A stretch of 51,960 nt of DNA from a phage. Of the stretch, positions 1 to 51,960 are shown in pieces (within the stretch, counting starts at the first letter, position 1; each line of letters begins with the position of its first letter). The notes beneath the pieces were generated by a model. The model was not told the DNA's origin. It searched no databases and saw nothing but the letters and a program-made list of their open reading frames with translations. The translations under genes and the position numbers were made by a program. The stretch lies in sequence record PZ000615.1. One strand, written 5' to 3'.

Positions 1-355
1 CGTTCGAGTCAAATCTCAGGTCAAATCGGCAATAGCTTGCGCGAAATCCTTTGCACTTATTCCGGACGTAATCGCGATGAATAGCCATGGCACCGGACAC
101 GGAAATCATACCACGCTTGCGCCATTCGTAAAGTGTGGCGTGAGAGATCTTAATGGCCTTGACAAGGGCGGCGGGTGAGCCGTAGTATTCAATCACCTTT
201 TCGAGGCGATGCGCTAATCCGGCCTTTACCTCATCCTTCAGGACGTAATAGCCAGTTGGTTTCTTGCGCTCTTTCTTATCAGCTCCGCGTGAAGTCCCGT
301 TATTACCGTTGAGAGAACGTTTGTCTACCGCGCCGGATTTTGTCAGTTTCGTCAT
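1..355 (-). CDS. Partial CDS (start codon in window, 3' end beyond window edge): putative helix-turn-helix transcriptional regulator
   Basis: Minus-strand open frame from ATG at 355-353 with GAGGA Shine-Dalgarno upstream, no stop before position 1 (hence absent from ORF track); translation contains HTH-like segment ISHATLYEWRKRGMISVSGAMAI; divergent from helicase operon. Confidence 0.4.
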   Translation of the reverse strand, partial: MTKLTKSGAVDKRSLNGNNGTSRGADKKERKKPTGYYVLKDEVKAGLAHRLEKVIEYYGSPAALVKAIKISHATLYEWRKRGMISVSGAMAIHRDYVRNKCKGFRASYCRFDLRFDSN

Positions 356-8954: not shown

Positions 8955-10535
8955 TTACCCCAGTAAGCGCGGGTTAACGTAAACGTCATCACCAATCAGG
9001 CAGACGTAACCTAATTCCTCAAGCTTTGGCAGCAGGTGATCACGAATGCGCTTTGTGACTCCAGACTGACCAAAGAAAGGTTTGATCTTGCGTACACCCT
9101 CATAGATTGAGCGGAACTTGATCACGCCTTTAGCGTTCTTGCCACGCTTGACGATGAAGTCAACGAGAACCCTCATCTCAGCATCGTCACCAGCATGACC
9201 AGCAGAGTTAGCTGATGAGAGATAAGTTTTGCTCAGCTCATAGAACATCGCAACAGCCTCTTGCATCGTGTCAAGGTCAACCGTCTTTGACTTCTGAGGG
9301 TTTGAGTTCTCACTCGACCAATTCCGGATCACGTGGATAACCGACGCAAGGCGAATCGCCTGTTTGTCAAACTTACCCATCGCACCGCGCAGCATCGTGT
9401 GAGAATACTTCCCACCATCCGCCAAGTGTGGCTCCATCTCCTGGCGTGCTCGGTTGAGATACTTCATCGCAGCCGCTCCCACCTTGAGCTTAATATCGCT
9501 CTCACTCATGATTTCGTGGATCAGCTTGTAGTATTTGGCGACAAGCTCTGAATCAATCGGGGTGTAAGTGCTTTCGCCTTTCTCATCGACGAACTTACGA
9601 CGACCCAAGTAAGACTCCTCACGAACCAGCAAGAAACGCTCCGATACACCGATACCACGCGAACCAGCCGCCATGATACCTTCTATCGTTTCGTCCTGAG
9701 CGATAACCGCAATCGCCCCCATAGCTACAAAGCTCATGTTGTTGTCAGCATTCGCACGAGCGATGGATACGTGACCGCTATCCCAGGCTTTAAGCACAAG
9801 TTCACTGTTCGTCTTGCGGCTCGCGTCCTGGTATGTCATGCCGAGCAATGAGTTGATACTCGTTGCCTCATCCGATATCACCGAGAAGTTGCCTTGTCGG
9901 TTGTTGATTCGAGCCAAGCCCTCCGGCGTGGTGTCGGATACAGGAAACACGATGTCACACATCTTTTCGAGTTTCTCCTCCAGATCCTCAAGCTCCTCGT
10001 AGAGGGATGCCATATCAGCTTTAGACTTCTCCCCCTTGAGTTCGGTCTTACACGCTGAGATCTTAGCCATTAAGCGTTTGCGCTCTTTCTTGCGCAGCTC
10101 GTTAAGGCGGTCAACCTCTGCGATCATTGGTTTGATTGCCATTGAGTTAATGGCTGATTTACCTGTCGATGGTGGCTGACTGGTTACGACGTAAAGCGCC
10201 GTTGGCTGATCTGTCCCGTGGTAGTCTACAGTGAATCGACCAAGCATAGCAGCAGACACGCACGCAAGAAAATGCATGTAAGCCGATGACTCTGGGAACT
10301 GAACAGAACGCGCCGCGTTTGCCGAAAGCTTTCCGACGATATCCAGATCGTTACCGAGAGAGATCACAGGATATTTGTCATTGCCGCCGTCAACGTCTTT
10401 AACCTCCGTCCAAAACGAGGACGAATGACGATACCCGTTAGCCTTTATTGCAACGCGCAGAGGTGAGATCCCCTCATTTTCTGCGATCACAATAATCTGC
10501 TGTGGCGTCATGGTCTGTTGCATATGGTCAAACAT
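8955..10535 (-). CDS. Large hypothetical protein with P-loop-like motif and coiled-coil segment; possibly replication-associated (DUF3987-like by recollection only)
   Basis: ATG with AAGGAG SD; PSTGKSA P-loop-like, SVISDEAT Walker-B-like, Glu/Lys-rich coiled coil ELEDLEEKLEK. Confidence 0.55.
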   Translation of the reverse strand: MFDHMQQTMTPQQIIVIAENEGISPLRVAIKANGYRHSSSFWTEVKDVDGGNDKYPVISLGNDLDIVGKLSANAARSVQFPESSAYMHFLACVSAAMLGRFTVDYHGTDQPTALYVVTSQPPSTGKSAINSMAIKPMIAEVDRLNELRKKERKRLMAKISACKTELKGEKSKADMASLYEELEDLEEKLEKMCDIVFPVSDTTPEGLARINNRQGNFSVISDEATSINSLLGMTYQDASRKTNSELVLKAWDSGHVSIARANADNNMSFVAMGAIAVIAQDETIEGIMAAGSRGIGVSERFLLVREESYLGRRKFVDEKGESTYTPIDSELVAKYYKLIHEIMSESDIKLKVGAAAMKYLNRARQEMEPHLADGGKYSHTMLRGAMGKFDKQAIRLASVIHVIRNWSSENSNPQKSKTVDLDTMQEAVAMFYELSKTYLSSANSAGHAGDDAEMRVLVDFIVKRGKNAKGVIKFRSIYEGVRKIKPFFGQSGVTKRIRDHLLPKLEELGYVCLIGDDVYVNPRLLG

Positions 10536-11236: not shown

Positions 11237-11281
11237 AATATAACAAAACCCGCCGGAGCGGGTTTATCAAAAAGTGCTATT
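11237..11281 (-). promoter_or_regulatory. Promoter-like cassette (minus orientation) overlapping terminator hairpin
   Basis: Minus strand AATAGCACTTTTTGATAAA, hairpin CCCGCTCCGGCGGG in spacer, TATATT 22 nt after TTGATA; upstream of small membrane ORF. Confidence 0.35.
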
Positions 11282-14674: not shown

Positions 14675-14721
14675 GATTATGACCGATTCGAGACTGATTG
14701 GTTTAGCAAAAAGTGCTATTT
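14675..14721 (-). promoter_or_regulatory. Promoter-like cassette (minus orientation), first of leftward operon
   Basis: Minus strand AATAGCACTTTTTGCTAAA; CATAAT-like hexamer ~23 nt downstream; then CATCGAAACAGGAGG-ATG. Confidence 0.4.
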
Positions 14722-14902
14722 CTTGCAGATTGTCATAATGACTATATTGTTGCTGTATTGTTCATGATCGCATAACGCCTTTGCTCATATAGCAATAGTG
14801 ATTGTTGCTGTGATAGCAAATGTGTGCGCTCATTATTGCTTGATATGCATTAAGTTGAGAGGGGTAGAGATGGTGATTCGCTGTTCGCCTGATGACTGTT
14901 GG

Positions 14903-15445
14903 AAATTTCACGGAGGATTTGGGGAGGATTACGGAGGATTTCTCGGACTCAATTAGACGAACCTTTCAGAGCTACAGCTCATCTTTCTCCATCCCTGACT
15001 TGTCTGATATGCTACGGAGGGTTGCGGAGGATTACGGAGGATTTGCAATTCGGCTCTAGCCCTTGGTGCGCGTGGCTTGCGAGAGATTTACGCCGGAAAA
15101 TGTCGATTTCTCTATGGGGGCTGGTATAGATATACATAGAGAATGATGAGAAAGTGATGTGTCCATACGCTCACAGAAAAAATCCGATAACCCAATAATC
15201 AACATAATCCTCCGTAAACTATGAAACGATACCAATATACCAATAGAGAGATATAGTAATAATATATATAAAAACCCTTATATTACATATATATATAGTA
15301 TTATTATATACTATCTATACTGATTAGCTTGGTCATAAAATGAGCTGATTTTACGGAGGATGGTTCCGGCGCAATCCTCCGCGATTTCGATAAGTGTATG
15401 ATTTGCAAGGCTGCATTTACGGAGGGTATTTTCCGCAAAACACGT
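14903..15445. repeat. Iteron/AT-rich non-coding region A (candidate origin or regulatory hub)
   Basis: Tandem CGGAGGATT-like 10-11-bp repeats at 14911-14940 and 15015-15043, inverted/extra copies at 15206-15214, 15351-15362, 15371-15384, 15415-15428; AT-rich core 15225-15330; blocks shared with region B. Confidence 0.6.
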
Positions 15446-24572: not shown

Positions 24573-24934
24573 TCACAACTATCATCATGTGTTTAATCTT
24601 CTTTGTTTTGGGTGGCGGCTTTACGTTCGTCGTAATTGCGGCTGGTGTTACTGAGTGCGCCAAGGATGGAATCCTTGCGGCGGCTTTCTACTCAGAGAAG
24701 CGCAAGCGTTGGGAGGTGATCGGCAATTATATGACCGTCTCCGGCAAGATCGGCAATATCCTAAAATCAGAAAATGCAGCCGAAAAGCTACACTACGTTG
24801 ACCTTGATCCTAAACCCAAGGAAAACAAAGAGCCGCTTAGCAAGCGATTCAAGGTGAAGTTAGGCATCAAGCGATCTGGCAAGGGCTGGCGACTCGATAA
24901 AAATAAGTCTGCCAACTTCAAACAAAGTGAATAA
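24569..24934 (+). CDS. Membrane-anchored hypothetical protein
   Basis: N-terminal TM IIMCLIFFVLGGGFTFVVIAAGV; followed by terminator. Confidence 0.45.
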   Translation: MITTIIMCLIFFVLGGGFTFVVIAAGVTECAKDGILAAAFYSEKRKRWEVIGNYMTVSGKIGNILKSENAAEKLHYVDLDPKPKENKEPLSKRFKVKLGIKRSGKGWRLDKNKSANFKQSE

Positions 24935-24940
24935 AAACTA

Positions 24941-24963
24941 ACCCGCTACGGCGGGTTTTTTTT
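24941..24963 (+). terminator. Rho-independent terminator closing the early array
   Basis: CCCGC-TACG-GCGGG followed by T8. Confidence 0.6.
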
Positions 24964-24974
24964 CGTCTGTAATC

Positions 24975-25008: not shown

Positions 25009-25539
25009 ATGAAAGACCAACGCAGCGCGAACGAGCGCATTACAGAGCGCGGCAACTTCAAAGAGTTGTACCGCAAAAAGTACGGTGACGTGATCTCCCG
25101 AACCAAGATCTTAACTCCTGAGCAGCTTTTTGATATGGGTGTCGCCTATTTCGAGTGGGCTGAGGCGAACCACATCAAGGCGGCTGAAACTGCATCCTTC
25201 CAGGGTGAGGTTAGCGAGAGCCTGGTTCACAAGGTGCGAGTGTTCACCCTCAACGGGTTTGCCCTGTATGCCGGATGCACGCTCAACACTCTCAACCGAT
25301 ACAGATCCGAACCAGCATACGCTGAGGTGATGGAGTTCATTGACTCGGTCGTGTATGAGCAGAAATTCCAGCTAGCGGCTAACGGCATCGTTAACCCTGG
25401 CTTTATTGGCAAAGATCTTGGCATCGACAAACCAGCAAACATCACCGTCGAAACCATTTCCAGCTCTCAGAGCAGCGCTATCGGAACGGTTGAGCAGCAA
25501 ATGGAACAGGCAGTTTCTAACGTTCTTGACAGCCTGTAA
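25009..25539 (+). CDS. Putative terminase small subunit
   Basis: Position immediately upstream of terminase large subunit, size 176 aa, follows terminator plus extended -10 promoter. Confidence 0.5.
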   Translation: MKDQRSANERITERGNFKELYRKKYGDVISRTKILTPEQLFDMGVAYFEWAEANHIKAAETASFQGEVSESLVHKVRVFTLNGFALYAGCTLNTLNRYRSEPAYAEVMEFIDSVVYEQKFQLAANGIVNPGFIGKDLGIDKPANITVETISSSQSSAIGTVEQQMEQAVSNVLDSL

Positions 25540-25548
25540 GGAGTTCTT

Positions 25549-27111
25549 ATGTTGCTATGGGAAGAGATGACCGCACAGGAAAAACTGGCGGTCAAGATGA
25601 TGAGCAAGCACTCATTTGAGAAGATGATCCGGATCTGGTTCCAGCTACAGCAAGCGCAGAAATTCCTGCCAAACTGGCATCACCTTTGGCTTTGTCATGA
25701 GGTAGAGGAAATTATTGCTGGTCGACGGGGTAACACGATCTTTAACGTCACCCCTGGCTCAGGTAAAACAGAGGTGTTTTCTATCCACCTTCCTGTTTAC
25801 TCAATGATAAACCTAAAGAAGATCCGAAACCTCAACATCTCGTTTGCTGACAGTCTTGTGAAACGTAACTCTAAGCGCGTGCGGGAAATCATCGCATCGA
25901 AAGAGTTCCAAGAGCTATGGCCTTGCAAGTTCGCAACATCCAAGGACGACGAAATCCAGATCCTAAACGGCGATGACAAGGTTTGGTTTGAGCTAATATC
26001 AAAGGCGGCTGGCGGTCAGATCACTGGCTCTCGTGGCGGCTACATGACGGATGGTTTTTCCGGCATGGTTATGCTTGACGATATCGACAAGCCTGATGAC
26101 ATGTTCTCAAAGGTGAAGCGCGAGCGAACGCACACGCTACTGAAAAACACCATTCGATCACGACGAATGAAGGACTCCACGCCAATCATTGCTATTCAGC
26201 AGCGATTGCACGCGCAGGATTCGACATGGTTCATGATGAATGGGGGGATGGGTATAGAGTTCGATCAGATCTCCATTCCGGCGCTGGTTACTGAGGAATA
26301 CGGCGAGTCGTTGCCTGACTGGTTAAAACCACACTTCCGAAAGGATGTGTTGGGATCTGAATCGGTAGAGATTGACGGAGTGAAGCATTACTCTTTCTGG
26401 CCTGAAAAGGAAAGCGTACATGACCTCTTGGCACTACGAGAAGCTGACCTTTACACTTTTGAATCTCAGTACCAGCAGCGACCAATCGCTCTCGGCGGCT
26501 CGGTTTTCAATGCCGAATGGTGGACTTATTACGGACACTCACTTGAGGCTCATGAGCCGTATCCTGAGAAATGGGAGTACAGATTCATCACGGCTGATAC
26601 CGCTCAGAAGAAAGGGGAGTTGAACGACTATTCCGTGTTTATCCTCTGGGGTCGCAAAGGTGATAAGGTCTACTTCATCGACGGCGTAAGGGGCAAGTTT
26701 GACGCTCCTGAGCTGAGGACTGAGTTTGAGGCGTTTGTTAAAAAGTGCTGGCGCGACAACAAAGCTCAAGGCGTGCTGAGAAAAATTTACGTGGAAGATA
26801 AAGCGAGCGGTACGGGTTTGATTCAGGATATGGAGAAGAAACTCCCGATCAAGATCACGCCGCTACAGCGAGACAAGGACAAGGTTACACGAGCGATGGA
26901 TGCTCAGCCAGTTATCAAGGCTGGTCGTGTCGTACTGCCGGAATCTCACCCTATGCTTGCCGAGTTCGTTGCGGAGCATAGCGCTTTCACGTATGATGAT
27001 ACTCATCCGCACGATGACATTGTAGATAACACGATGGATGCAGTGAATGAGGAATTGAACATTGCAAGCGATCCGGTTGCGCGAATGAAGCGTTTAGCGG
27101 GTATGAAATAA
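25549..27111 (+). CDS. Terminase large subunit
   Basis: Walker A TPGSGKT, Walker B MLDDIDKPDD, C-terminal nuclease-like acidic region; 520 aa. Confidence 0.8.
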   Translation: MLLWEEMTAQEKLAVKMMSKHSFEKMIRIWFQLQQAQKFLPNWHHLWLCHEVEEIIAGRRGNTIFNVTPGSGKTEVFSIHLPVYSMINLKKIRNLNISFADSLVKRNSKRVREIIASKEFQELWPCKFATSKDDEIQILNGDDKVWFELISKAAGGQITGSRGGYMTDGFSGMVMLDDIDKPDDMFSKVKRERTHTLLKNTIRSRRMKDSTPIIAIQQRLHAQDSTWFMMNGGMGIEFDQISIPALVTEEYGESLPDWLKPHFRKDVLGSESVEIDGVKHYSFWPEKESVHDLLALREADLYTFESQYQQRPIALGGSVFNAEWWTYYGHSLEAHEPYPEKWEYRFITADTAQKKGELNDYSVFILWGRKGDKVYFIDGVRGKFDAPELRTEFEAFVKKCWRDNKAQGVLRKIYVEDKASGTGLIQDMEKKLPIKITPLQRDKDKVTRAMDAQPVIKAGRVVLPESHPMLAEFVAEHSAFTYDDTHPHDDIVDNTMDAVNEELNIASDPVARMKRLAGMK

Positions 27112-34076: not shown

Positions 34077-34733
34077 ATGCACTTACCAAACGGTTCTCAA
34101 ATCTTTGTTGAAAACACTCGTGACGTTGAAGTCGCAGTGACCGAGCTAACCAACGCCAAAAACCCAGTCGCAACTGTTGCAGACGGGACAAAGTTCAAAG
34201 CTGGTGATTACGCGCTCGTGACCTTCTCCAGTTGGGCGGCTCTCACTAACCGCGTGGTTCGTATCAAGTCAGTGGCAACAAACGATCTGACTATTGAGGG
34301 TTTCGACTCCTCAGACACGAACAAATATCCGGCTGGTGCCACTGCGTCAATCGTCAAAATTCTGACCTGGGTTGAAATCCCTTGCGTTCAGGATCTGGCG
34401 CAGGAGGGTGGCGAGCAGCAGTTTTACAACTATCAGTGTCTTGCTGATGACCGTGAGCAGCAGTTGCCAACGTTCAAGTCAGCCGTGTCTCTGACGTATA
34501 CTTTTGCGCACGAATACGACAACCCGATCTATCCGGTTCTGTCGAAAGCGGAGGAGTCCGGCGAGGTAAAAGCTCTCCGCATGTTCATCCCTAAAGCGAA
34601 AGAGATGCGTATGTACTCCGGCGTTCTGTCGTTCAACGACATCCCACAGACGACCATGAACGAAATGGAAACCGTTTCGTTAGCCGTTGCTCTGAAAGGT
34701 AAATTCGAATCCGTTCCTGCTGAGGCGGTATAA
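34077..34733 (+). CDS. Major tail (tube) protein
   Basis: ATG 34077 after AAAAGGAG; position upstream of G/T chaperone pair; followed by terminator. Confidence 0.6.
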   Translation: MHLPNGSQIFVENTRDVEVAVTELTNAKNPVATVADGTKFKAGDYALVTFSSWAALTNRVVRIKSVATNDLTIEGFDSSDTNKYPAGATASIVKILTWVEIPCVQDLAQEGGEQQFYNYQCLADDREQQLPTFKSAVSLTYTFAHEYDNPIYPVLSKAEESGEVKALRMFIPKAKEMRMYSGVLSFNDIPQTTMNEMETVSLAVALKGKFESVPAEAV

Positions 34734-34738
34734 AATTA

Positions 34739-34768
34739 AGGGAGGGCGCTTGCTCTCCCTTTTCTTTT
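34739..34768 (+). terminator. Rho-independent terminator after major tail gene
   Basis: GGGAGGGCGC-TT-GCTCTCCC followed by TTTTCTTTT. Confidence 0.55.
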
Positions 34769-34814
34769 GTGTATAATCAACGCAACGAAACAACAAACCA
34801 CTGGAGTAAAACAA

Positions 34815-35141
34815 ATGGCTAAGATGAAACTCACTATCAAAAAACGTCCCGATTTCAAACTCAAGCTTGAGCTGCAAATGCCTGACACTGATGACGTTGC
34901 GGTTGTAGTCCTTGACGTTGAGCACCGCAAAGCCAAGGAGCTTGCAGATCTGTTCAATGCTCCGGATGAAAAGCGTCCTGATGATGTAACTTTCTTCAAG
35001 GAGTTCGTGAAGGGGTGGGATCTGGAGGAGGAGTTCAACGACGAGAACATTAAGGAAGTCATTGAATGGTTCCCGAACATCATGGTTACGTTCACCTATG
35101 AGTACATGAAAGCTCTCACGGGTCAGCGAGTAAAAAACTAA
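34815..35141 (+). CDS. Tail assembly chaperone (lambda gpG-like)
   Basis: Acidic ~108-aa protein upstream of tape measure; slippery heptamer A AAA AAC at its 3' end. Confidence 0.6.
   Translation: MAKMKLTIKKRPDFKLKLELQMPDTDDVAVVVLDVEHRKAKELADLFNAPDEKRPDDVTFFKEFVKGWDLEEEFNDENIKEVIEWFPNIMVTFTYEYMKALTGQRVKN
35132..35138 (+). other. Programmed -1 ribosomal frameshift slippery site (A AAA AAC)
   Basis: Heptamer X XXY YYZ in G frame, 1 nt before G stop; -1 frame reads KKLKRAVFLLHQKPPTDAEL into T ORF. Confidence 0.55.
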
Positions 35142-49275: not shown

Positions 49276-50325
49276 CTATTGGTTATCTTGAGAGAAAAGC
49301 TCTTTGAATTGGTACTTCACAAACTCCGGAGTAGGGAGTTCAACTTCATCGGCGTTATTCTCATAACTAGGCCAAACGTCATTTTTTACGCACTCAGCAA
49401 ACACGTGAATGACGCTGGTGTACTGCTGACGACCAATCGTTAACTGAGCGTGGTTCATAGTGAAACCGAGTGGCAGGAAAGGCATTTTCTTTTCCTGAGC
49501 CAGGAACCGGATAACGATAGGTCGAGTCTCCTCAAACGCCGCCTTGAACAGATCCCGTTGCAATGCCATTTTCAGGTAATAGCCAAGGTTAAACGCATGG
49601 CGAGCAAATTCAGAAGGCTTAACACTCTGAGTGGTCTTGTAGTCAGTAATAACCACAATCTCCGGATGAATCTCAGGATCGTAACCGTATCGACGGATTA
49701 TGTCTGGGTCTGTGATCGTGTCGACGTGATCGAGTCTAACCTTAACCTTAACCCCGAAAATGGTTCCGAAGATTGAAATCTCACGCAATGCTGTTTTGCT
49801 GTTGATGGTTGCAGCGTGGCGCGGGATGTTCAGTAACGTCTGACGCATGTATTTGCAAGAGTCATAATCCTCAGCCTTAACGAGTTCCTTACCCTCACTT
49901 TTCGCGTTCCACTCCGCGAGCATATCCTCAAGCCACAGAACGTTTACATCAATTTCGTTCTTTGCCGCCATAACCAGCAACTCAGGATATCCCTTACCGC
50001 TAGTACCAATCAGGCCACACGCCTTTAGCTTTGACGCCAGGGCTGTTTGACTCGTGATGCAGTCTTTCAGCTCTCCAGCCATAACACCGCGAGCGTACAA
50101 GCTTTCAAACTTCTCGACCTCAAGCATCATCGTATGTGACTGAGTACCGAAAGCCAAAGCTTGAGTTTCAACTCGCTCCTTGAATTTCCAACTCGCTGGT
50201 GACTTCTCGTGAATCTCTGCGAGAGATGATCCTGATACATACTCAGAAACCCAAGTATCCTCAGCGTGATACTCATCGTTTGACATCTCCTCGTTGAGGA
50301 AATACTGAAAGCGTGGCTGTTCCAT
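49276..50325 (-). CDS. PD-(D/E)xK-type exonuclease (recombination exonuclease)
   Basis: Track ORF 49276..50388 starts at TTG; ATG at 50325 after CAGGAG; motifs RLDHVD and VITDYKT (D...D/ExK). Confidence 0.55.
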   Translation of the reverse strand: MEQPRFQYFLNEEMSNDEYHAEDTWVSEYVSGSSLAEIHEKSPASWKFKERVETQALAFGTQSHTMMLEVEKFESLYARGVMAGELKDCITSQTALASKLKACGLIGTSGKGYPELLVMAAKNEIDVNVLWLEDMLAEWNAKSEGKELVKAEDYDSCKYMRQTLLNIPRHAATINSKTALREISIFGTIFGVKVKVRLDHVDTITDPDIIRRYGYDPEIHPEIVVITDYKTTQSVKPSEFARHAFNLGYYLKMALQRDLFKAAFEETRPIVIRFLAQEKKMPFLPLGFTMNHAQLTIGRQQYTSVIHVFAECVKNDVWPSYENNADEVELPTPEFVKYQFKELFSQDNQ

Positions 50326-50355: not shown

Positions 50356-50399
50356 AGTATACCCGATCTCATTCGTTGCGTTTAGCAAAAAGTGCTAAT
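50356..50399 (-). promoter_or_regulatory. Promoter-like cassette (minus orientation) upstream of exonuclease-erf-ssb operon
   Basis: Minus strand AATTAGCACTTTTTGCTAAA then TATACT ~21 nt downstream, then CAGGAG SD and ATG 50325. Confidence 0.4.
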
Positions 50400-50407
50400 T
50401 TTCACTC

Positions 50408-50860
50408 AACGGAGGATTGCGGAAATTTACGGAGGATTTGAAATCTGGCTCTAAGCCTTGCCACTACTGGATTTGTCGACAATCTACGCCGGAAAATGTC
50501 GATTTTCTCGCTCTATAGACACCAAAAACGCAGAAAACAGGCACAAAAAAAGATCCAATAACCCAATAATCAACATAATCCTCCGTAAATAAATAATATA
50601 CATCACATAGATAATGATAATATCTATATATATTAGACACTTACGTATATCTAAAGGTTGAAAATAGCTCATTATTTGAACGAAATTCGCGGAGGATTGA
50701 TCCGGCGTAAATTCCGCAAATTCTGTAAGTAACTGATTTTGTTGAATGCAATTGCGGAGGATTTTTTCGTGAATCTCCCGTAAATCGGCCTTGTTTAAGT
50801 TTGTTAAATCTTTTTCCGGAGGATTGCGGAGGATTGCGGAGGGTTTGCGGAGGATTTTTC
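50408..50860. repeat. Iteron/AT-rich non-coding region B, paralogous to region A
   Basis: CGGAGGATT copies at 50410-50440, 50575-50588 (inverted), 50688-50700, 50750-50765, four tandem copies 50816-50856; AT-rich core 50580-50660; shares TACGCCGGAAAATGTCGATTT and ATAACCCAATAATCAACATAATCCTCCGTAAA with region A. Confidence 0.6.
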
Positions 50861-50887
50861 CGGCGTAAAAAAACCCGCCGAAGCGGG

Positions 50888-51829
50888 TTAGTTTTTGCGG
50901 TTGATTAGGACTATCGGATCGTAAAGTGCTCGCTTGCAACCGGATTTGAATCCTGAGCGGTCATCATTTGGAATGATAACTTTCAACTCCCTGTCATCTG
51001 CCATGTATAGAGTATCAAGATCGCCTGACGCACAAGCCACTCTAAGCTCACGCTCTCCGGTATACCTGTATGCGACAATCTCAAGGTTGCTAGGCTCAAT
51101 GCACGCCCAACACTCTTGGCCTGTAGCCTCATGAACTCGGACGGCATCAAACCACGAATTAACAAGGTATATGGCTTTGTCTGTCGATCCTACCTTTATG
51201 ACTGCTCCTCTCGTGTAGTCTCTGGCATAGAACCGCTCATCGCCAAGCTCATCTATAAATAGAAGGTTGCAGTATTCATCATCAAGATCATCTCCCTGCA
51301 CGAGCTGCATCGGGAGTACGTGAAAAACGCTCTCAGCTCCATTCTCAAGGGTTTTCACGCCTACATCGAATGATTCACCTATTAGCCCCTCAAACATCGT
51401 CAGAGGCGTCTGCGCTCGCTTCTCAGTCCTATCCAGAACCGCCTGGCATTTGTCATGCTCGGCAGTAGCTCCAAAGCTGTAGCCTGGGTCTTTCGCGGCT
51501 CTCTTGTTCTGCTTGATTACATATTCCTGAGGAACCTTGCCGAGGAATCTACCGAGGATGTTAATGCATTCACTGTAAGGCTCGCCGGACAACTTCATAA
51601 GCCAGCCAATCCCTTTGTCAGCTCCGCAATTGTTGCAATAAGCCCAACCGTCACCGACCTTGTTGTCCTTTTTGTTTGTCCAACGAAATCTATCCTTACC
51701 GCCACAGTGAGGGCAGTCCTGATGCTTGCCGTTGAAGTATTTCGAGTTCAGGCCGCAAATGCTTTGGAGCGCGTCTTGCCACATGTTAGCCATGTATGGG
51801 ATCACGTCCTCCTCCTGGTACATCATCAT
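50888..51829 (-). CDS. DNA primase (zinc-ribbon + TOPRIM-like)
   Basis: N-terminal CPHCGG...RFRW...CNNCG zinc ribbon; C-terminal acidic motifs GDLDTLY and IIPNDDRSG. Confidence 0.55.
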   Translation of the reverse strand: MMMYQEEDVIPYMANMWQDALQSICGLNSKYFNGKHQDCPHCGGKDRFRWTNKKDNKVGDGWAYCNNCGADKGIGWLMKLSGEPYSECINILGRFLGKVPQEYVIKQNKRAAKDPGYSFGATAEHDKCQAVLDRTEKRAQTPLTMFEGLIGESFDVGVKTLENGAESVFHVLPMQLVQGDDLDDEYCNLLFIDELGDERFYARDYTRGAVIKVGSTDKAIYLVNSWFDAVRVHEATGQECWACIEPSNLEIVAYRYTGERELRVACASGDLDTLYMADDRELKVIIPNDDRSGFKSGCKRALYDPIVLINRKN

Positions 51830-51900: not shown

Positions 51901-51960
51901 GTGCTTATTTTACTACTCGGAGCATTTCTCGACGGTCACAGCGAGTGGTTAGAGCCTTGC

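Follow-up and report, generated by a model that had tools for sequence, protein, structure and literature searches.

Origins made of iterons and an unwinding element are already established, as are phages with two of them. In P4, two separated non-coding regions, ori and crr, repeat the same short word (the type I iteron, TGTTCACC); primase, SF3 helicase and iteron-binding domain are combined in one polypeptide, alpha, and crr has no origin activity of its own. SPP1, a pac-type, concatemer-forming siphovirus, has the paralogous origins oriL and oriR, with G38P boxes beside an AT-rich segment and, in the vicinity, genes for a RecT/Erf-type recombinase, an exonuclease and an SSB. In the SaPI origin, 6–12 short iterons flank a central AT-rich region on either side and are bound by a self-loading helicase (PMC9371898). 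For the T1-like phages, TLS was reported to be without iterons anywhere and the origin was reported as not found (PMC11447400, PMC7718038); the TLS authors had sought a lambda-type ori and reported none (PMC11447400). Here we describe two regions, modules A and B, of the T1-like phage genome PZ000615.1 (51,960 bp, the whole of which is the window analysed). In our reading, A and B are two copies of a cis-acting, protein-binding module of double-stranded DNA, and we weigh the evidence that they are replication origins.

PZ000615.1 is a complete, circularly permuted Eclunavirus genome (Drexlerviridae) and is linearized at the same arbitrary point as Ec_L1. The genomes compared were PZ000615.1, Ec_L1, Phc, T1, TLS, Rtp, KP36 and phiEB49, the nearest being the Enterobacter phages Ec_L1 and Phc (83–88% identity). 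To these were added 80 IMG/VR loci (L020–L099) recovered via the helix-turn-helix (HTH) protein described below, 65 of which could be analysed for the module beside recE; loci L018 and L019 have no module A and were left out. A 40-W pattern used to look for AT runs proved too stringent and was abandoned.

Two modules of phased iterons around AT-rich cores

Module B spans 50405–50867 and module A about 14905–15445. Both are marked by a core word of 9 nt, CGGAGGATT, which occurs exactly 15 times in the genome (8 in B, 6 in A and 1 at 1010), 14 of the 15 copies falling within the roughly 1 kb of A and B. With up to one mismatch allowed there are 35 matches, against 11.1 ± 3.2 in shuffled sequences, and 0 of 100 shuffles reach 35. 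The 8-mer CGGAGGAT is found 15 times in the modules and twice elsewhere in the genome. The iteron can be extended to a 14-nt unit, ATTTACGGAGGATT, of which a second recurring word, TCCGGCGTAAAT, is a degenerate inverted copy. A stretch of 460 bp holds about 16 iteron or variant sites. These form direct arrays, phased at 10–11 bp, on both sides of a core, with inverted copies at the core edge (50577–50585 in B and 15206–15214 in A) and a palindromic pair at 15354–15381.

The cores are the two genome extremes of both AT content and duplex instability. The stretches 15215–15344 (A) and 50585–50667 (B) are the only ones in the genome with at least 80% AT in 80-bp windows; the A core reaches 85% (z = 6.2, the genome maximum) and the B core has z = 5.5. 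No other 100-bp duplex of the genome is as unstable as these two (−99.0 kcal/mol for A and −105.9 kcal/mol for B; genome mean −140.0 ± 5.9), the A core being the more AT-rich and the less stable. We designate both as putative DNA unwinding elements.

A first-pass annotation of the sequence had proposed that B repeats the architecture of A in the same orientation. Pairwise alignment bears this out: the modules are colinear on the same strand, with 70.5% identity over 207 nt (E = 2e-20) and further aligned segments. Because the similarity spans G+C-containing blocks, it is not just one of low-complexity AT sequence. Among the shared blocks, TACGCCGGAAAATGTCGATTT is identical in both modules (15090–15110 and 50487–50507, 21/21), as is ATAACCCAATAATCAACATAATCCTCCGTAAA (15187–15218 and 50558–50589), which lies within a 42-nt block that is 95% identical. 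The left-edge block GTTTAGCAAAAAGTGCTA, by contrast, occurs outside A and B as well: it belongs to a set of 20 genome copies matching ATAGCACNNNTTGNTAAA (0.41 expected), a genome-wide direct repeat (DR), and was rejected as a part of the module. Both regions are present in Ec_L1, in Phc and in two IMG/VR contigs, that is, in independent genomes, so they are not an assembly artefact. They are true, non-identical paralogues. Their separation of about 35 kb is correct in one direction (35.4 kb); as the genome is circular, it is 16.6 kb in the other.

From left to right, B begins with an iteron triplet at 50410–50438 (plus strand), composed of CGGAGGATT, the degenerate CGGAAATTT and CGGAGGATT at 50410, 50420 and 50430; the 10-bp spacing and the triplet itself are invariant in Ec_L1 and Phc. 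The conserved block TACGCCGGAAAATGTCGATTT (50487–50507, plus strand) includes the variant iteron ACGCCGGAA, and Rtp has a related word, CCGCGGAAAATG, at the equivalent relative place. The 42-nt block (50548–50589, plus strand; counterpart 15177–15218) ends in the inverted iteron AATCCTCCG, which touches the core. The right arm carries an iteron at 50690–50698, with the inverted variant ATCCGGCGTAAAT beside it and AATTCCGC (50686–50724 in all, plus strand; the counterpart of the palindromic pair of A), and then an iteron at 50755–50763 and AATCTCCCGTAAAT at 50772–50785 (50755–50785 in all, plus strand). B closes with a tandem array at 50817–50867 (plus strand), with iterons at 50817, 50827, 50837 and 50848 (spacing 10/10/11) followed by the inverted variant TTCCGGCGTA. 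The four tandem copies noted at first are thus confirmed at 50817–50856, one of them (CGGAGGGTT, at 50837) with one mismatch.

Module A has two phased triplets (14911/14922/14932 and 15015/15025/15035; 14911–15043, plus strand), followed by its copies of the 21-nt and 42-nt blocks (15090–15218, plus strand), with the inverted iteron included, and by the core. Its right arm (15354–15428, plus strand) consists of the palindromic pair CGGAGGAT-N12-ATCCTCCG and of CGGAGGGTA (15420–15428). The 8-nt palindromic iteron pair is perfect in A, and its equivalent in B is degenerate on one side (CGGAGGAT..AATTCCGC).

The B core includes the word TATCTATATAT, found family-wide. This word or its complement, ATATATAGATA, recurs within the AT cores of PZ000615.1, T1, Rtp and KP36 despite their differing flanking repeats, and it may be a conserved recognition or priming element.

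Both modules lie in untranscribed space, B between a terminator and an outward-facing DR and A between divergent DRs. The terminator (50872–50889) is a bidirectional intrinsic one that ends the primase gene and insulates B from primase transcription. On the other side of B, the DR copy TTAGCACTTTTTGCTAAA (50381–50398, minus strand), a promoter-associated repeat, faces recE and lies outside the duplicated module proper. The DR is the 21-nt direct repeat already known upstream of genes in TLS and other T1-like phages (PMC11447400). In PZ000615.1 the DR consensus is ATAGCAC-N3-TTGnTAAA, which contains a dyad, and all 20 copies are oriented toward downstream genes; they lie on the plus strand at 369, 2890, 3994, 6785, 15460, 15830, 17490, 18800, 19102, 20038, 21155, 21982 and 22792, and on the minus strand at 11263, 12817, 13734, 14702, 30934, 46011 and 50381. 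A simple sigma-70 scan did not call the DR sites as promoters. The terminators at 24933–24972, just upstream of the small-terminase gene, and at 50857–50896, that of the primase gene, are 88% complementary copies of each other (AAAAACTAACCCGC..GCGGGTTTTTTT).

No open reading frame within the modules is conserved. The minus-strand open reading frame at 50484–50939 (151 aa), which the first-pass annotation suspected of being spurious, was rejected as a gene: it has a TTG start, overlaps the 3′ end of the primase gene, is interrupted by indels in relatives and is not conserved in length, the stop-free stretch being 154 aa in PZ000615.1, 94 aa in Ec_L1 and 103 aa in Phc, with an 11-nt indel in the tandem array. 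A structured non-coding RNA was rejected as well, since an Rfam scan of the modules returned only sub-threshold matches (none near threshold), the terminator insulates B, sigma-70-like promoter matches inside either module are at chance level and the module can be inverted.

Conservation across Drexlerviridae

The three Eclunavirus genomes agree, site by site, in the positions of their iterons. In B, 95% of the iteron columns are invariant, compared with 76% of the remaining columns of the module (p = 2e-7); for A the two shares are 93% and 67% (p = 1.5e-8). The number of tandem copies varies, from 4 in PZ000615.1 to 5 in Ec_L1.

The pair itself is found well beyond the genus: Ec_L1, Phc, T1, TLS, Rtp, KP36 and phiEB49 all have both modules at equivalent map positions. 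The first position is a non-coding, divergent region that separates two clusters of small early genes and adjoins the genome end or pac-like segment; the second is also non-coding and lies about 350 nt upstream of the recE–erf–ssb operon. The two highest AT peaks of the genome are A and B in PZ000615.1, T1, TLS, Rtp and KP36, and the modules rank second and third in phiEB49. When the A and B cores of one genome are compared, their similarity is significant in every case (Rtp, 83% over 123 nt; KP36, 85% over 130 nt; T1, 75% over 91 nt; TLS, 68% over 123 nt; phiEB49, 77% over 90 nt). In 62 of the 65 IMG/VR loci a peak of at least 75% AT lies upstream of recE, its median distance to the recE start being 354 nt (interquartile range (IQR) 337–371 nt), and the peak is present in both gene orders, with recE on the strand of the regulator gene (35 loci) or on the opposite strand (30 loci). 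Two origin-like regions, described as unusual by the first-pass annotation, are so for phages generally but not within Drexlerviridae, where every examined genome has the pair.

The flanking repeats, by comparison, are specific to the lineage and common to A and B within a genome. They are CGGAGGATT in PZ000615.1; GGTAAGATT in Webervirus, at colinear positions and with 6 of 9 bases the same as in CGGAGGATT; TGTAACA and CGATTAAC in T1; GTTAC and GATATACAC in Rtp; and TGTTnnC types in many others. TGTTnnC types (TGTTACA, TGTTCAC, TGTTTCC and TGTTCTC) surround the AT cores in most Drexlerviridae genera, as seen in the IMG/VR loci, T1 and TLS. In KP36 the hairpin of the primase terminator is itself built of two inverted iterons (GGTAAGATT...AGTCTTACC).

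Orientation and gene order around the modules vary. In KP36, A is inverted relative to B (1–480 versus 34514–35008), whereas the two are direct in PZ000615.1, which argues for an element of double-stranded DNA that works independently of orientation. In T1, TLS and Rtp, a tail-fibre gene and an inverted recE block separate the module from the primase gene. The position of B next to the primase gene is therefore real in PZ000615.1 but incidental: it occurs only with the gene order of Eclunavirus and Webervirus, and across the family the module keeps to the upstream flank of recE–erf–ssb.

Candidate proteins and readings of the modules

The replication module of PZ000615.1 encodes a primase, an SF2 helicase, a VRR-NUC nuclease, RecE, Erf, SSB, an HTH protein of 136 aa and a DUF3987 protein of 526 aa. 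The recE gene (49276–50325) and the DNA primase gene (50888–51829; zinc ribbon of primase–helicase type) are both on the minus strand. Between the primase and SF2-helicase genes lies the Cro-like HTH gene (51905–51960 plus 1–355, minus strand; phrog_2856, with a match to the P22 Cro HTH), which is annotated as a transcriptional regulator; it is cut by the sequence ends, and its 136-aa frame is seamless across the junction. The DUF3987 protein (8955–10535, minus strand), named 'DNA helicase' in T1-like phages, is a candidate helicase for the AT cores. Its predicted fold, with high confidence, is that of an MCM-like AAA+ helicase with an ORC/Cdc6-like C-terminal winged helix, the latter predicted at residues 450–520; the AlphaFold model is a confident one (pLDDT 88.5, pTM 0.84). 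Sequence searches against the PDB detected no solved structure, and the fold was assigned by fold search.

In the helicase winged helix, the putative recognition helix hardly changes between phages whose repeats differ; the winged helix is therefore disfavoured as the determinant of specificity, which more likely resides in the separate Cro-like HTH protein. Whole-protein identity between genera was uninformative for selecting a binder, all candidates lying at 43–70%. In the HTH protein, the recognition helix varies between genera and the N- and C-terminal parts are invariant. PZ000615.1 and a metagenomic relative, whose helicases are 76% identical, have in common CGGAGG-type repeats and the helix SHAxLxEW, and SHAxLxEW is absent from every other locus examined. 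Across the 80 loci every helix class pairs with its own repeat class, a pattern confounded by phylogeny. The putative binder of the modules is probably the Cro-like HTH protein, serving the MCM-like helicase and the primase.

Phased repeats, an unstable core, insulation from transcription, selection on the repeats, their lineage-specific sharing between A and B and the presence of a helicase and a primase together make up the anatomy of an iteron and unwinding-element origin. On these grounds we favour, by a little, the reading that A and B are such replication origins, including the case in which one fires and the other is auxiliary. That the module fires replication, which protein binds it and whether both copies are active are inferences. 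In the mechanism we envisage, a sequence-specific phage protein, most likely the 136-aa Cro-like HTH protein, would fill the phased 9-bp iterons flanking the AT core of about 80–130 bp. Cooperative binding on one helix face would bend or wrap the DNA and melt the core, onto which the DUF3987 MCM-like helicase, with its C-terminal winged helix, would be loaded. The phage primase would then prime, and host DNA polymerase III would extend, T1-like phages encoding no polymerase.

Several observations weigh against reading the modules as origins. Both modules always lie just upstream of promoters, and A adjoins the pac-like end. T1, TLS and several other genera have just 3–4 copies of a 7-mer, short and sparse repeats for which the term iteron is less compelling. 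The association between helix and iteron is suggestive only: besides being confounded by phylogeny it is imperfect, as K29PH164C1 (TYQALQNW) and KP36 (SIQVVQQW) form a discordant pair, both having GTAAGAT. The modules contain no DnaA boxes (up to one mismatch) and no IHF consensus, and GATC shows no enrichment (0 in A and 2 in B, against about 2.8 expected per 500 bp); a DnaA-dependent, oriC-like origin was rejected for want of a DnaA box and of GATC clustering. GC skew follows the direction of transcription and is uninformative for origin mapping.

A rival reading is transcriptional control alone: the iterons would be operator or enhancer arrays through which the Cro-like regulator switches the adjacent early/middle promoters, the core would work as an UP-like or bending element, and neither would take part in replication. 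In its favour, a DR promoter repeat directly follows each module, the candidate binder has a Cro-type HTH and is annotated as a transcriptional regulator, the distance from AT core to recE is constant (the IQR given above), and the regulated units would be recE–erf–ssb and the two divergent early clusters. However, the core is about 150–250 nt past the promoter repeat, which is far for an UP element, and 16 sites over 460 bp flanking the least stable DNA of the genome are not operator-like. Moreover, module A can be inverted relative to the flanking genes, there is no iteron near the regulator's own promoter at 355–451, and a module is present at only 2 of the roughly 20 DR promoters. We consider control of transcription without replication unlikely.

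A single origin would also fit part of the data, the other module being an auxiliary site (as with ori and crr of P4) or a dormant or secondary origin (as with oriL and oriR of SPP1). The iterons of A and B are the same within each genome and the composition of the arms differs: KP36 has 10 copies of GTAAGAT in B and 3 in A, and the four-copy tandem array is found only in B of PZ000615.1. P4 and SPP1 are precedents. Against this, the AT core is just as extreme in one copy as in the other throughout the genera, which argues that both are melted and not merely bound. A single active origin, with the same protein bound to both modules and the two perhaps looped together, seems to us improbable.

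The neighbourhood of A calls for a separate account, because region A is not a wholly duplicated unit. The segment 14720–14900 has no counterpart in B and carries its own TTGC and ATTGTTGC repeats, the words ATTGTTGCTGT and TAGCAA, and GAGAGGGG..GTTCGCCTG. In the T1 and Rtp records the homologous sequence surrounds coordinate 1, the pac-proximal genome end, and the T1 record annotates a repeat_region at 1–2800 (a 2.8-kb terminal repeat) from that coordinate. Region A thus consists of a pac-like segment followed by the module, and 14720–14900 is, judging from these alignments, probably the pac region of PZ000615.1. In Phc the left part of this segment is strongly diverged.

That the duplicated part itself serves as pac, its repeats being small-terminase sites and its AT region a bendable stretch between them, after the manner of SPP1 or P1 pac, with B as a second pac, is very unlikely. 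In favour of this reading, coordinate 1 of T1 and Rtp maps about 80–95 bp left of the first A iteron, about 180 nt separate coordinate 1 from the start of the A core in the T1 and TLS records, and the TLS pac was mapped experimentally to that genome end (PMC11447400). Against it, the T1 and Rtp ends align to about 14815–14835, within the A-only segment and not the module, the TLS restriction data were interpreted as one pac site (PMC11447400), B is tied to recE and not to the terminase genes at 25030–27105, and the identity of the small terminase (TerS) between genera, 43–56%, points to nothing specific. Elsewhere in the genome, 16672–17493 (plus strand) encodes a 273-aa protein matching phrog_887, a queuine tRNA-ribosyltransferase.

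Returning to the origin reading, the occurrence of the pair across the whole family makes A and B the best candidates yet for its replication origins. A more far-reaching version, which we regard as speculative and rather doubtful, is that all Drexlerviridae have an origin pair, one on the pac side and one on the recE side, at which an HTH initiator would read lineage-specific iterons and recruit the MCM-like helicase. If so, this would be initiation in a bacterial virus with 'ORC-like' recognition and MCM-like unwinding placed on separate proteins, and the two origins might communicate by looping, like ori and crr of P4.

In the accessible literature, which does not include the T1 (2004) and Rtp (2006) genome papers or older T1 work, we found no link between Drexlerviridae and iterons or AT-rich origins. 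What appears to be new is the identification of the duplicate element as a conserved Drexlerviridae feature, together with a concrete hypothesis for its initiator and helicase. T1 is a classical T phage, and among the Drexlerviridae are hundreds of sequenced phages considered for therapy as well as notorious contaminants of laboratories. With two exactly bounded candidate origins that recur across the family, and with named candidate proteins, the origin question becomes directly testable. For engineering, the loss or relocation of these 'empty' intergenic regions of about 500 bp may kill the phage, and cloned modules might serve as an anti-phage decoy by titrating the initiator.

Comparison with known origins

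The origin of lambda resembles the modules in having direct repeats for a phage initiator beside an AT-rich unwinding region and in relying on the host polymerase; it differs in being single, inside gene O, with four iterons of about 18 bp on one side only. SPP1 shares with PZ000615.1 the pac-type life style, two paralogous origin-like regions and recombinase, exonuclease and SSB genes near them. However, oriL lies inside the initiator gene, and the SPP1 initiator and the DnaB-type helicase G40P (with its loader G39P) are unrelated to the proteins found here.

P4 is similar in having two separated regions that share a short word, and the TGTTnnC-like repeats of Drexlerviridae presumably resemble its type I iteron, TGTTCACC. 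By annotation in the T1 record, the primase resembles two proteins, the phi-R73 primase and the alpha replication protein of prophage CP-933, both of which we take to be P4-alpha-like. Unlike in P4, primase, MCM-like helicase and HTH protein are separate here and both modules have a full AT core.

SaPI differs in its iterons, which are 5–6 nt long against 9 nt here (14 nt when extended), and in its single origin region, against two separate modules in PZ000615.1. The SaPI origin is immediately downstream of rep, whereas the helicase gene of PZ000615.1 is about 4.4 kb from A and far from B, and no sequence-level relationship was detected between SaPI Rep and the phage helicase. SaPI is nevertheless the nearest described example: it has repeats on both sides of an AT core with oppositely oriented copies beside the core, and, as is predicted for PZ000615.1, it encodes a primase of its own alongside an MCM-like/AAA+ helicase whose C terminus is a winged helix (PMC9371898).

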